The notes under the pieces were generated by a model. The model searched no databases, had not been told where the DNA came from, and saw only the letters and a program-made list of their open reading frames with translations. Positions 29,901-38,688 of a DNA stretch of 64,000 nucleotides are shown here, one piece after another. The position numbers and the translations under genes are program-made. Every line of letters begins with the position of its first letter. The first letter of the stretch is position 1. The DNA is taken from assembly GCA_041242255.1 (NCBI GenBank), contig JBESAV010000001.1, positions 603,449 to 667,448 on the forward strand, read 5' to 3'. This stretch comes from Candidatus Altimarinota bacterium. Its GTDB lineage: Bacteria; Patescibacteriota; Gracilibacteria; UBA1369; GCA-2718715.

Positions 29901-30374
29901 AATTTCTTACCAGATGAATGTAATTACGAAAGAGCCTTAAAAGAAATAGAAAAGTTCGACGGATTTGATCAAGAAATCTCAAGGTACGAAGCTCTTCAAT
30001 ATGTTCTTATCATTAACTGTATTGGACTTGATGAACTTCCACAAAACCCAGCTGACTATCCTTTCTCAGATATCAATCTAGAAAGCGAAAAACTAGCTAG
30101 AGTTTTATATACAGGATACAACAGAGGAATAGTAAAAGGATATCCAGACGGAACATTCCGCCCAGCAGATCCAATTAACTACGTTGAGCTTCTCGCTATC
30201 AATGCTAGAGCTCAAGGCCTAGCTACTGACTCTCAGGAGGACGGTACAGAGTGGTATAGCTCATACTTAACTCTTGGTCTAACTATCCGTCTAGCCATCT
30301 CAGGAATAGATTATGCAGACCCAATCACAGGTGACACTTTCTACCTAATCACTACAACCTTCCTAAACAGCTAA
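26940..30374 (+). CDS. giant secreted surface protein: CSLREA-type N-terminal domain, many parallel beta-helix repeats, Gly/Ser/Pro linker, C-terminal SLH-type module
   Basis: 1144 aa with a signal peptide. N-terminal GDGVCTLREAINNSN. More than 15 repeats of NxISGNxxxGI / IQGNYIG. The C-terminus is homologous to that of 19461-22094 (GYPDGTFRPADPINYVEL). Confidence 0.85.
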   Translation: MFYTKQIKKGLMLFLFLGVLSLTSIASAATITVNTDADNTTAGDGVCTLREAINNSNGDVDTTSSDCTPGAGADTIVFDLPGATRITVATELPAITDTVDIVGQSQGASSCLDKNTLEMELTTSQQGISGLIFDSGSNGSSLSGFYIHNFTAASFSGFGAVELNTEVQVSCNVFGIDATGSVSENMYGIIVEGANSVIGGPNPEDGNVISGSAIDGVRISGASTTNVTVSNNYIGTNIAGSSEIPNQSQGVRTVLSSQAEIGPNNVISGNNSSGIRITSPNVNVFGNIVGLNAAGDAAIPNSTGIFSTAGDLIIGGGTEADRNIISGNDASGIFIDTSDSNIQIQGNYIGVSQDGSASISNGGDGVNIEAIAPILIGGDTLGQGNVISGNSGNGIHTQNNSNGAEIKGNIIGLNAAGDTAVPNLFDGILGRANNLVIGGDTIAERNIISGNGSDGIESSFFYSGHTIQGNYIGVSQDGSSDIGNGSTGITATDSQIGGLNPGEGNIISGNGDVGLDISSGTIQGNLVGLNASGTSAIPNDTGGISAFGTAVEENIISGNTGVGLELGGDNATIFGNYIGTSSDGTFAVPNTSHGVVLSGDSIQVGSTVSGEENIISGNGGSGIVLDGTNIDIIGNLIGVSITEDATGNEESGIQVIQQSEQVFDGDGFVTEFSPSNNITIGGLTSDHSNTISANSIAGILVDDSNTNISILGNNIGTDSLGNVVPGDLVNDALGNGQFASAGEDFGGIIARSSSSVSIGNADGSGANVIAGNTGPGILVSQNLTLAESTVTILSNSIFSNSGLGIDLANDSDGDGFSELEQDATLNDAGDVDTGANSLQNFIELTAKTDNGANYTVDYTLDTISGDYLVQFYESSQADPSNYGEGETLLTSESITHTGGGSESFTATFSVTEPTTLVATVTQDLGGGSYGATSEFSSNEIIVEEPAPAPSGGGSNGSGVDASNTNPFGGEDQGSSEPDQETQPDVADNFLPDECNYERALKEIEKFDGFDQEISRYEALQYVLIINCIGLDELPQNPADYPFSDINLESEKLARVLYTGYNRGIVKGYPDGTFRPADPINYVELLAINARAQGLATDSQEDGTEWYSSYLTLGLTIRLAISGIDYADPITGDTFYLITTTFLNS

Positions 30375-30392: not shown

Positions 30393-30419
30393 AAAAAAGC
30401 CCCGTGTGGGGCTTTTTTT
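30393..30419 (+). terminator. intrinsic terminator
   Basis: aaaaAGCCCCgtgtGGGGCTttttttt. Confidence 0.8.
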
Positions 30420-30672: not shown

Positions 30673-31527
30673 TTATTGGTCTAGGAATTCTTGAAGATTC
30701 TTGTAAGGCTGTTCCCCTGATATGCTTAAACCATCTAAAAGCTGCCTTAAGATATCTCTATTTTCATCAAACAAGTTAGAATAGGTAAATGTCATAGCCT
30801 GTATACTGCCCTCATCACCAGCATAATATCTGTTGTAGTAGGTAAAGTCTGTACCATCGAGCTTAATCTTAGTAATTAGATCTACAAACGCTGTACCATC
30901 TTTGTTCACAATGCTTTCTTCTATTATTTCAAAACTCTCACTCTCTTCTTGTAGATTGCTTTTAGCTATGCTGACTAAATTTTCTAAACCTACATTAGGC
31001 TTTTCTGCAATAATGATTGCGTAAGAGTCATTACTTGAGTTTAGCTCATACTCGGCGTCACTATTAAAGCTTTCTCTTGATACAGACCACTCTGACGCAT
31101 TGTATTTAAGTGAATAGTTTACTTCTTCCCCAATCAATGTATCTATTACATACATTCCGGTTTCTTCGTATAAATTATCAAAATTTAATGTTGCATCTGT
31201 TTCATCGTATCCTTTCAAACTTAAAAGGACTGACAAAATAAGAGCAATTATCAGCCCAAACCCAAGAAGGAATTTTATCAATATCTCACTTTTTATACTT
31301 TTCTTTACTGCGTATATCACAAGACTTAATCCCATTATTGGGAAAAACAAAGTGGCAAAGTTATAACCCAGAGCTTCTGCATTATCTAATGTGACAAGTC
31401 CAAAGTTAGGTTCTTGAATGTTAGTTATTATTGAAAAGCTAAAAAACAAACCAATAACACCAGCTAGATCTCTCTTATTTAAAGACATAATAAAACTTAT
31501 ATTTAAAAATACCATACAGCTTTGCAA
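30673..31527 (-). CDS. hypothetical membrane protein with extracytoplasmic C-terminal domain
   Basis: 284-aa maximal ORF with TTG start. ATG alternatives at 31515 and 31488 are more likely starts. Four or so TM helices then a soluble domain. Confidence 0.55.
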   Translation of the reverse strand: MQSCMVFLNISFIMSLNKRDLAGVIGLFFSFSIITNIQEPNFGLVTLDNAEALGYNFATLFFPIMGLSLVIYAVKKSIKSEILIKFLLGFGLIIALILSVLLSLKGYDETDATLNFDNLYEETGMYVIDTLIGEEVNYSLKYNASEWSVSRESFNSDAEYELNSSNDSYAIIIAEKPNVGLENLVSIAKSNLQEESESFEIIEESIVNKDGTAFVDLITKIKLDGTDFTYYNRYYAGDEGSIQAMTFTYSNLFDENRDILRQLLDGLSISGEQPYKNLQEFLDQ

Positions 31528-31573: not shown

Positions 31574-31690
31574 GTCTCTCAATTAGAATTTATGGCCAAG
31601 GGCTCGCTCACTTTTTGTCTGATATGGACAATGGTGGGCACCTAGCCATATCGGTAGCCCTTCGTGGATTCTGATTGGGAGACCTAGGTG
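31574..31690 (+). ncRNA. unclassified structured RNA element (candidate cis-regulatory leader) upstream of the SLH-nuclease gene
   Basis: 16-bp closing stem 31574-89/31668-83. Inner stems 31596-604/31656-67 and 31621-27/31646-52. Loop segment 31639-45 is complementary to 31684-90. No Rfam family recognised by eye. Confidence 0.45.
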
Positions 31691-31726: not shown

Positions 31727-33019
31727 ATGTTTAAGAAAGCTTTATCCAGTACAATTGCTCTTATGCTTTTTGCTACTGCAATCCCTGTTCAAGCACAGCA
31801 GGCAAATGTGCTTAGTGATATCTCACTAGAATCAGATTATTTCGTATCAGTGAATCATCTATACGCCAACGGTGTAATTGGCGGTTATCCTGATGGAACC
31901 TTTAAGCCAGAGAAAACTATCAGCCGAGCAGAGCTCATGAAGGTTGTAGTTGAATCAAACACTGACAACATCGATGAAACCCAGTACCAAAATTGTTTCC
32001 CTGATGTTAAAGAGGACTGGTACGCAAAATATGTTTGCTATGCCCAAGAACAAGGTTGGGTGTCAGGTTATCCTGATGGTACATTTCAACCTGCAAATCC
32101 AGTAAAGAGAGCAGAGGCAGTTAAAATGATAGTAAACGCCTTTAAACTAGACCTAACCTCTACAACAGAACTACCACTTGATGTCCCAGCAGATTCATGG
32201 TTTGCTCCTTTTGTAATTGAAGCACAGTCGAGAGGATCACTAGATCTAGTAGTTGATTCTTTTGGTCCCGCAGAGGATGCAACCAGAGGCTACGTATCAG
32301 ATATTCTATACAAACTCCTCACTGTTGAAGAAACAGGCCTACAATCCTTCGATGAGTACATGATAGAAGGACCTTACTTAGTTACTAGAGTTGTAGACGG
32401 AGATACAGTCGACGTCGAAGCAAACGGTGAGACCATGAGACTCAGGTTGATTGGTGTAGATACACCCGAAACAGTTCATCCCAACAAAGATGTAGAGCTA
32501 TACGGTCCTGAGGCATCTGCGAAGGTAACAGCTGACTTACTCAATACTTACATTCTGCTTGAATCAGACATCACTCAATCGGACAAGGATGTATACGACA
32601 GATACTTAAGATACGTTCGCCTGCTAGATGGAACCAATTACAACGAGCAACTCATTAAAGAGGGTTACGGATTCGAATACACATACGACAACAATCCTTA
32701 CATTTACAAAGACCGCTTTGACGAGGCAGAGCTATTTGCTAACACAAACGGTATCGGACTATGGAATCCTGATTTAGTTGAGGGACAAACCCTGGAAGAC
32801 CTCATCGAGGAAGAGCCAACAGAGAAAAATGATGAACCAACAACTGACAGCAACAGTAATGGTCACGTGTTCTATGTAAGTAGTAAGGCTAGAACTAAAT
32901 ATTACTGTGACACAGACCCATCATGGGAAGATCTCTCGAAGGATAATCTTCTTAGATACGAATCAGAAGCTGAACTAAAAGCTGATTTTCCGGGTTTAGA
33001 GCTTAATCAAGCTTGTTAG
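31727..33019 (+). CDS. secreted SLH-domain thermonuclease (staphylococcal nuclease family)
   Basis: Signal peptide MFKKALSSTIALMLFATAIPVQA, reached from the ATG at 31727 (the ORF track uses GTG 31688). Two SLH motifs (GGYPDGTFKPEKTISRAEL and SGYPDGTFQPANPVKRAEA). SNase core VVDGDTVDV...RLRLIGVDTPET...YGPEAS...DRYLRYV. Confidence 0.85.
   Translation: MFKKALSSTIALMLFATAIPVQAQQANVLSDISLESDYFVSVNHLYANGVIGGYPDGTFKPEKTISRAELMKVVVESNTDNIDETQYQNCFPDVKEDWYAKYVCYAQEQGWVSGYPDGTFQPANPVKRAEAVKMIVNAFKLDLTSTTELPLDVPADSWFAPFVIEAQSRGSLDLVVDSFGPAEDATRGYVSDILYKLLTVEETGLQSFDEYMIEGPYLVTRVVDGDTVDVEANGETMRLRLIGVDTPETVHPNKDVELYGPEASAKVTADLLNTYILLESDITQSDKDVYDRYLRYVRLLDGTNYNEQLIKEGYGFEYTYDNNPYIYKDRFDEAELFANTNGIGLWNPDLVEGQTLEDLIEEEPTEKNDEPTTDSNSNGHVFYVSSKARTKYYCDTDPSWEDLSKDNLLRYESEAELKADFPGLELNQAC

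Positions 33020-37206: not shown

Positions 37207-38688
<1,482 letters not shown>

Follow-up and report, generated by a model that had tools for sequence, protein, structure and literature searches.

The window analysed here is the whole stretch of 64,000 nucleotides. Its plus strand carries a gene for a secreted protein that combines two SLH domains with an SNase nuclease domain, and the region upstream of this gene holds a sigma-70-like promoter followed by a long fold (Table 1). On the plus strand, the segment 31574-31701 has a folding energy of -57.1 kcal/mol (z = -6.2 against 200 dinucleotide shuffles, none of them equally stable). The minus strand of the same segment reaches only -36.2 kcal/mol, with z = -2.9.

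An earlier note on this DNA had proposed a structured RNA, with a pseudoknot, in the 5' leader of the SLH-nuclease gene. All of the pairings it listed were found at their positions, and both the location and the structured-RNA claim are borne out, the latter by conservation and abundant covariation that extend to the proposed pseudoknot. The note had also regarded the RNA as belonging to no known class and had suggested a covariance-model search of Rfam. This search was run and no family matched: Rfam 15 (4227 models) gave no match at the element at the gathering score and nothing relevant between 31400 and 31850 at E <= 10, and ten diverse members of the family described below gave no match at E <= 1. 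On the sequence evidence, the fold in the window is one copy of a previously undescribed family of structured leader RNAs.

Table 1. Features of the leader RNA and its surroundings, in positions of the window.
Feature	Start	End	Strand	Description
Sigma-70-like promoter	31540	31567	+	TTGAAA and TATTAT with a 16-nt spacer; 6 nt between the end of the -10 box and P1
P1, 5' strand and extension	31574	31595	+	P1 at 31574-86; weak AU/GU-rich extension at 31587-95
P2, 5' strand	31599	31604	+	AGGGCU; partner at 31656-61; covaries in the family
Hairpin P3	31606	31639	+	P3a 31606-12/31633-39; P3b 31615-20/31626-31; loop L3 GAUAU at 31621-25
Pseudoknot, 5' strand	31636	31645	+	GGGCACCUAG; junction J3/4 and the last P3a bases; covariation
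Hairpin P4	31645	31655	+	GCC/GGU, 31645-47 with 31653-55; loop L4 AUAUC at 31648-52, kisses L3
3' strands	31656	31683	+	P2 31656-61; hinge extension 31662-70; P1 31671-83
Pseudoknot, 3' strand	31684	31693	+	CUAGGUGUCC; begins right after P1; covariation
U-run	31694	31701	+	UCUUUUGG; next to the pseudoknot helix; proposed termination point
Secreted SLH-SNase protein gene	31727	33019	+	two SLH domains (Pfam 2.6e-27), SNase (2.4e-17); ATG at 31727

Pairings conserved across the RNA family

A BLAST-type search of relatives provided one partial homologue, in genome G021, with the same fold and compensatory changes. A covariance model was built from these two sequences and rebuilt from 24. In total, 46 unique copies of the element, each about 125-135 nt long, were collected from Peribacteria/Peregrinibacteria genomes and metagenomes.

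All share one architecture, a long P1-P2 stem leading to a three-way junction that carries the hairpins P3 and P4, whose loops kiss. Across 38 distinct sequences 93% of the cells of the secondary structure are paired, and 34 of its 37 pairs have changes on both sides. None of 500 shuffles attained the observed values, and slid controls were at most 47% paired. Of the 46 unique copies, 34 have a TAnnnT hexamer, resembling a -10 box, whose end lies exactly 6 nt upstream of nucleotide 1. This implies that the RNA is base-paired from +1; in the window, transcription would start at G31574, the first base of P1. The family helices contain many G-U pairs, and these, together with the -10 box at its fixed distance, set the strand and the start of the RNA.

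The base of P1 is 99% paired in the family alignment, and all six of its pairs have changed on both sides. Its family form is GUCGCUC/GGGCGAC, with GACACCC/GGGUGUC, GUUGACC/GGUCAAC and others as variants. The GGGAGA that the earlier note had singled out in P1 is merely this conserved, covarying base, which reads GGGCGAC, GGGUGUC or otherwise in other members. Beyond P1 lies, in most members, a large internal loop whose 5' strand is U-rich and whose 3' strand carries AGCAAG. In its place, the window copy has a weak AU/GU helix (31587-95 with 31662-70), and P1 and P2 form a near-continuous helix of about 28 bp.

The P3 helices are paired in 96-97% of cells and have changes on both sides. The segment 31605-20, previously described as a 16-nt pyrimidine-rich asymmetric loop, is instead the 5' strand of this conserved and covarying hairpin. 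In each RNA the loops L3 and L4 complement one another fully, with a mean best duplex of 4.5 nt within sequences against 3.1 nt between them, and they covary as GAUAU/AUAUC, GAAUU/AAUUC, UAACU/AGUUA, AAACU/AGUUU, CUAUU/AAUAG and UUACU/AGUAA. Because of this covariation, the 7-bp helix GAUAUGG/CCAUAUC that had been called P3 is read here as a kissing-loop interaction. Its loop-loop part is conserved, whereas the two additional G-C pairs lack conservation among the members and compete with the covarying P3b and with P4; as a helix of 7 bp it was therefore rejected. Few unpaired nucleotides are strongly conserved in the family consensus, with conservation lying mainly in the P1 base, P3a, P4 and the flanks of the pseudoknot.

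The pseudoknot was left out of the covariance search model. Its ten pairs are nevertheless 96.5% paired, with 73 cells changed on both sides compared with 20.6 in shuffles (0 of 500 attain the observed value), and slid controls reach at most 62%. The 7-bp pairing CACCTAG/CTAGGTG noted earlier thus exists and covaries, and its length has to be corrected from 7 to 10 bp (31636-45 with 31684-93). The central four pairs are nearly free to vary (CACC, CCAC, CUAC, GCGA, CGUC, UACG and so on), within a family pattern of GGG-NNNNN-AG for J3/4. Genome G062 contains two near-identical copies that differ by a compensated change in this helix. Only 0-1 nt separate P1 from the 3' strand of the pseudoknot; this near contiguity means that the two helices must stack, with the 5' end of the RNA at the nick.

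The U-run lies 0-2 nt past the pseudoknot helix in every copy, with the consensus CC-N-Y-UUUU-G. UUUU is invariant among the 38 sequences and begins, in the window copy, 2 nt beyond the 10-bp helix GGGCACCUAG/CUAGGUGUCC. The pseudoknot and UUUU together have the order of an intrinsic terminator, a GC-rich helix and then a U-run. A local hairpin with a loop of 3-8 nt was not found, and a simple terminator scan was empty at this site. In some copies the P1 3' strand and the tail could form a local terminator hairpin; this candidate was rejected, as it has no covariation, with observed values equal to those of shuffles. The pseudoknot is the sole conserved helix adjoining the U-run. Its arms are 38 nt apart in the window copy and about 40-50 nt apart in the family, with P4 and the 3' strands of P2 and P1 lying between them. 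We know of no established precedent for an intrinsic terminator with arms about 40 nt apart that enclose other helices.

Elsewhere in the window, a perfect bidirectional terminator, AAAAAAGCCCCACACGGGGCTTTTTT, lies at 30393-30418 between convergent genes (a 1144-aa ORF ending at 30374 and a minus-strand ORF ending at 30673), which indicates that canonical intrinsic terminators of hairpin plus U-run are used in this genome.

The segment GGGC (31636-39) forms the end of the pseudoknot nearest to the U-run and is also part of the 3' strand of P3a, so that its two partners are mutually exclusive. When GGGC changes, both partners change along with it in three independent cases (C-G-C, A-U-A and U-A-U). 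A G at column 132 faces C in both partners (L032), a U in one copy faces A in both, and an A at column 131 faces U in both (L037). Furthermore, P3a often has U-G at exactly those positions where the pseudoknot has C-G. Since both partners covary with GGGC, two mutually exclusive pairings are both maintained, and one of these completes the GC-rich helix beside the U-run. As in riboswitches, a covarying structured 5' leader is found here together with a predicted expression platform of mutually exclusive pairings.

Distribution and genes under the leader

The rebuilt model found 34 copies in 29 of the 205 genomes of the order (22 of 118 genera). The distribution is patchy, with the RNA present in 14% of these genomes and absent from 86%. 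In a class-wide sample 15 of 401 genomes had matches, a few of them from other orders, and 400 further genomes from across the phylum gave two weak matches, with the pseudoknot retained in one of them at least. When 185,579 species genomes were scanned with an exact pattern, 15 loci were found, and apart from one contig all belong to assemblies of Candidatus Peribacteria, Peregrinibacteria or Gracilibacteria. This contig (L080, CAZYOE010000250.1, 5.2 kb) carries a typical member and a Peribacteria-like downstream gene and is binned as Pseudobdellovibrionaceae; its position outside the CPR is probably a binning error and not a true occurrence. The same scan found 11 true members in JGI and ENA metagenomes and no copies in viral contigs. 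Judging by these searches, the RNA is a new family, confined almost entirely to Candidatus Peribacteria/Peregrinibacteria.

In the complete 1.0-Mb genome to which the window belongs, two further copies, C1:577868 and C1:86567, accompany that of the window, making three in all. Each of the three has its closest relatives in the other two, which points to duplication within the lineage rather than recent transfer. Nine other genomes of the same taxonomic family were searched and no copy was found.

Identity with SRP or 6S RNA was considered and rejected, with the RNA being multi-copy (three divergent copies), patchy and always a leader, and RF00169 giving no match. In the same genome (98.5% complete, single contig), neither SRP RNA (RF00169) nor 6S RNA (RF00013) was found at E <= 10, while controls were detected; these RNAs are either very divergent or were missed by the first-look filter.

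An ORF on the same strand follows all 38 copies examined, with its ATG 5-43 nt past the modelled element. The usual distance is 13-18 nt, about 20 nt beyond the U-run. This spacing leaves no space for a second promoter. The downstream products include seven SLH proteins, three of which are SLH-SNase nucleases, seven Zn-ribbon/transmembrane/tRNA_anti-like OB-fold proteins, three proteins of a "WYKKWW" membrane family, three DNA methylases and one Ogg-like glycosylase. The remainder includes many uncharacterised proteins with a signal peptide or a transmembrane segment, and about half of all downstream genes have no recognisable function. A crude test for hydrophobic segments is passed by 31 of the 38 downstream proteins, against about 40% of the ORFs of the genome to which the window belongs. 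Counting two SLH proteins just under the threshold of this test, 33 of 38 are envelope proteins. The same gene families (SLH, Zn-ribbon/OB-fold and "WYKKWW") recur beneath the element across different taxonomic families.

The earlier note had linked the element to SLH-nuclease genes and had proposed a comparison with such loci in relatives. Covariation and conservation were indeed found in the family, whereas only one of 24 SLH-gene loci of relatives has the element, and this is the copy already known. It is not specific to SLH-nuclease genes, as many unrelated genes also follow it, and it is not typical of SLH genes as a whole, most of which are without it.

The note had further pointed to GTG 31688, which the list of open reading frames uses as the start, and had suggested that the fold could occlude a translation start. 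The gene instead begins with the ATG at 31727 (MFKKALSS..., with a signal-peptide-like N-terminus, as in the orthologues), 34 nt past the pseudoknot, and the genome is nearly without Shine-Dalgarno sequences. As GGAG was seen upstream of merely 15 of 589 long ORFs, masking of a Shine-Dalgarno sequence was rejected. The invariant U-run directly past the pseudoknot also favours transcription termination over translational masking. The earlier interpretation is thus partly supported, as an unclassified riboswitch-like leader, yet one that does not mask a translation start. The 3' end of the 16S rRNA in this genome retains CCUCC (window 38680-38688), and the upstream regions of its ORFs are simply AT-rich.

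In most copies the motif UUAACC(C) occurs about 12 nt before the ATG, and the spacing from U-run to ATG is near-constant (e.g. L027 1648-1675). The window copy lacks this motif, which is rare ahead of other ORFs in the family loci (5 of 57). A pairing partner for UUAACC was sought inside the element and none was consistent. The first codons also recur (MATK..., ...LKKG) in unrelated protein families under the element. These recurring codons and the near-constant UUAACC spacing suggest that promoter, leader and start may have been copied together as a module.

The gene family most often found under the leader encodes proteins of about 175 aa (loci L021, L023, L028, L033, L045, L057, L118 and L120). 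Each combines a zinc ribbon at the N-terminus with a single transmembrane segment and, outside the cytoplasm, a tRNA_anti-like OB fold (PF12869); they are likely to be nucleic-acid-binding proteins of the cell surface.

In terms of genomic setting, four copies in taxonomic family f6 are followed, at 0.6-1.3 kb, by a co-directional Phage_integrase gene, and three copies, including C1:86567, lie 3-6 kb from a tRNA-Thr(GGT) gene and an integrase hotspot. In three genomes (G000:C1:83186-89400, which is L066 4620-10825; L063; L064) the tRNA-Thr(GGT) gene has a XerC-like integrase directly after it, and then variable cargo. Among this cargo are an AAA_15/AAA_21 (AbiEii-like) ATPase, DUF4238 and a second integrase family. 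This locus looks like a shared integration hotspot or defence island that also hosts copies of the leader.

A predicted attenuator and other readings

With slightly better than even confidence, we read the element as a transcription attenuator in which the pseudoknot serves as the terminator. A promoter, a folded RNA, a GC-rich helix with its U-run, a gene without a promoter of its own and a conserved competing pairing are found in succession, and attenuation is the simplest reading of this combination. Termination, switching and the existence of a signal are parts of the model that we infer from sequence.

Transcription would begin at the first base of P1, and the RNA would fold into the P1-P2 stem and the three-way junction. 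J3/4 could then pair with the ten nucleotides that follow P1, giving a GC-rich helix stacked on the base of P1 and abutting the U-run. This helix would have the anatomy of an intrinsic terminator, with its upstream arm supplied from within the folded RNA. If GGGC were held in P3a instead, P3a would act as an anti-terminator. The tail would dock first, through CUAGGU, on the free toehold of J3/4, and whether GCCC then displaces P3a or not would decide between termination at the U-run and read-through into the gene. An input would tip this balance by setting how stable the junction, P3 and the kissing loop are. The input could be a small ligand, a protein, or ions or temperature acting on the kissing loop and P3. 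In the window copy, the P1-P2 helix of about 28 bp implies that the tail can reach J3/4 only if the weak AU/GU hinge opens.

Several observations stand against attenuation. There are few strongly conserved unpaired nucleotides, unlike in most metabolite aptamers. The targets are heterogeneous, with DNA methylases and an Ogg-like glycosylase beside the envelope proteins. The geometry of the terminator, with distant arms that enclose other helices, is unusual. The conserved UUAACC between U-run and ATG is left unaccounted for.

A special case of attenuation, which we regard as possible though rather doubtful, is a metabolite riboswitch with a small-molecule binding site in the three-way junction. 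One candidate would be a nucleotide, nucleoside or nucleobase that controls the scavenging of extracellular nucleic acids. The complex tertiary fold, with a three-way junction, kissing loops as in purine riboswitches and a pseudoknot, agrees with it, as does an alternative pairing coupled to the U-run. CPR bacteria are generally without nucleotide synthesis, and the recurring targets include secreted SNase nucleases, surface OB-fold (tRNA_anti-like) proteins, DNA methylases and the Ogg-like enzyme. On the other hand, conservation of unpaired nucleotides is very sparse, no function can be recognised for about half of the downstream genes, and the RNA is present in only 14% of the genomes of the order. 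As for second messengers, c-di-GMP and c-di-AMP are unlikely inputs, because the own genome, complete and with three copies of the RNA, has neither a GGDEF nor a DAC domain, and because GGDEF does not track the RNA (15 of 29 genomes with the RNA against 70 of 176 others). GGDEF occurs in 85 of the order's 205 genomes, so that cyclic-dinucleotide signalling has a patchy distribution in the lineage.

S-layer genes have long, structured 5' UTRs that have been proposed to act as 5' stabilisers, and a constitutive expression module of this kind, with no sensing, is in our view an unlikely explanation. The 5' end would be buried in the stack of P1 and pseudoknot, and the mRNA would be shielded from decay that depends on the 5' end, giving strong expression of surface proteins. 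In its favour, the RNA appears to be base-paired from +1, the pseudoknot stacks directly upon the 5' end, envelope proteins make up most of the downstream genes (33 of 38, seven of them SLH proteins), few junction nucleotides are conserved, and the module, first codons included, has apparently been copied onto unrelated genes within a genome. However, a simple 5' hairpin would suffice for protection. This explanation accounts neither for the invariant U-run past a GC-rich helix nor for the upkeep of both partners of GGGC, and a terminator-like signal between promoter and gene would be counter-productive for constitutive expression.

A stand-alone small RNA is very unlikely. Here the pseudoknot and U-run would be a constitutive terminator, the product of 130 nt would act in trans or bind a protein, and the downstream gene would be a mere neighbour. 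In its favour are the promoter of its own, the terminator-like end and the compactness and stability of the fold. Against it, all 38 copies have a co-oriented ORF 5-43 nt further on, with near-constant spacing, UUAACC and no space for a promoter, so that the downstream genes would be left without one of their own. Copies within a genome also differ in sequence, which is unexpected for a single trans-acting species.

Lastly, an RNA of mobile elements, whether a self-cleaving ribozyme of a new kind, a recombination site or a regulatory RNA belonging to integrative islands, seems highly improbable: the patchy distribution, the several copies per genome and the integrase and tRNA-Thr(GGT) neighbourhoods would agree with it, but no Rfam ribozyme matched, viral contigs gave no copies, the G-U pairs and the RNA-only pseudoknot and kissing loop speak against a DNA recombination site, most copies, that of the window included, have no nearby integrase, and the mutual closeness of the own-genome copies points to duplication within the lineage.

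Relation to known RNAs and significance

Read as an attenuator, the RNA would belong to a general kind already known, the cis-regulatory leaders, and its unusual part would be the pseudoknot terminator. The fluoride (crcB), ZTP and preQ1-I riboswitches are also promoter-proximal leaders in which a long-range pseudoknot and an alternative pairing compete, with the result read out at a U-run. Their pseudoknot prevents the formation of a separate local terminator hairpin, whereas in the new RNA the pseudoknot helix itself abuts the U-run and no local hairpin is conserved. There is no sequence or model match to any of the three. The purine riboswitch (RF00167) shares the three-way junction with two distal hairpin loops that kiss. 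In the new RNA, however, the kiss is a freely covarying Watson-Crick duplex of 5-7 bp, the junction strands are not conserved, and the long P1-P2 stem and the pseudoknot are additional; RF00167 did not match even at E <= 10.

The 5' UTRs of S-layer and outer-membrane protein genes (the slpA and ompA stabilisers) are similar in having a 5'-terminal stem paired from +1 upstream of abundant surface (SLH) proteins. The new RNA is far more elaborate, with conserved tertiary pairings and a terminator-like helix with its U-run, and it also precedes genes for proteins that are not at the surface, such as DNA methylases. Phage HK022 put and the EAR element of Bacillales (Rfam epsC) are promoter-proximal structured RNAs before envelope-related or horizontally acquired genes, and EAR is pseudoknotted. 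They make RNA polymerase ignore distant terminators, whereas the new RNA has a terminator-like signal within itself, and no similarity in sequence or fold was seen (no Rfam match). Finally, in flavivirus xrRNA the interior of a three-way junction pairs with a strand 3' of the closing helix and encloses the region of the 5' end. The new RNA uses another junction strand, is not homologous, occurs in a different host and context, and begins at the helix.

Gene regulation in CPR/Patescibacteria is poorly understood, and almost none of these bacteria can be cultured. In the literature that we searched, nothing relevant was found on riboswitches or ncRNAs of Peregrinibacteria, Peribacteria or Patescibacteria, and no description of a native structured regulatory RNA of the CPR. 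The family described here is a well-defined CPR RNA, supported by covariation and with a rich tertiary architecture. It may represent a new design of terminator, made from a long-range pseudoknot, and it offers a handle on surface and nucleic-acid-handling genes that these episymbionts may co-regulate. A further use of the element could be as a native expression switch in the genetic tools being developed for Patescibacteria.

A more far-reaching proposal, which we put forward tentatively and hold to be rather improbable, is that these RNAs constitute a class of riboswitches or RNA sensors native to CPR/Patescibacteria. Such a class would combine a pseudoknot terminator, toehold docking and strand displacement of an internal hairpin, and would control a regulon of surface nucleases, OB-fold proteins and envelope proteins. 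If so, this regulon would be the machinery with which ultra-small symbionts scavenge from their hosts and interact with them, and the sensor might respond to nucleotide status or to a cue derived from the host. Should the RNA prove to sense a ligand, the identity of this ligand would indicate a signal that is central to life as a symbiont.
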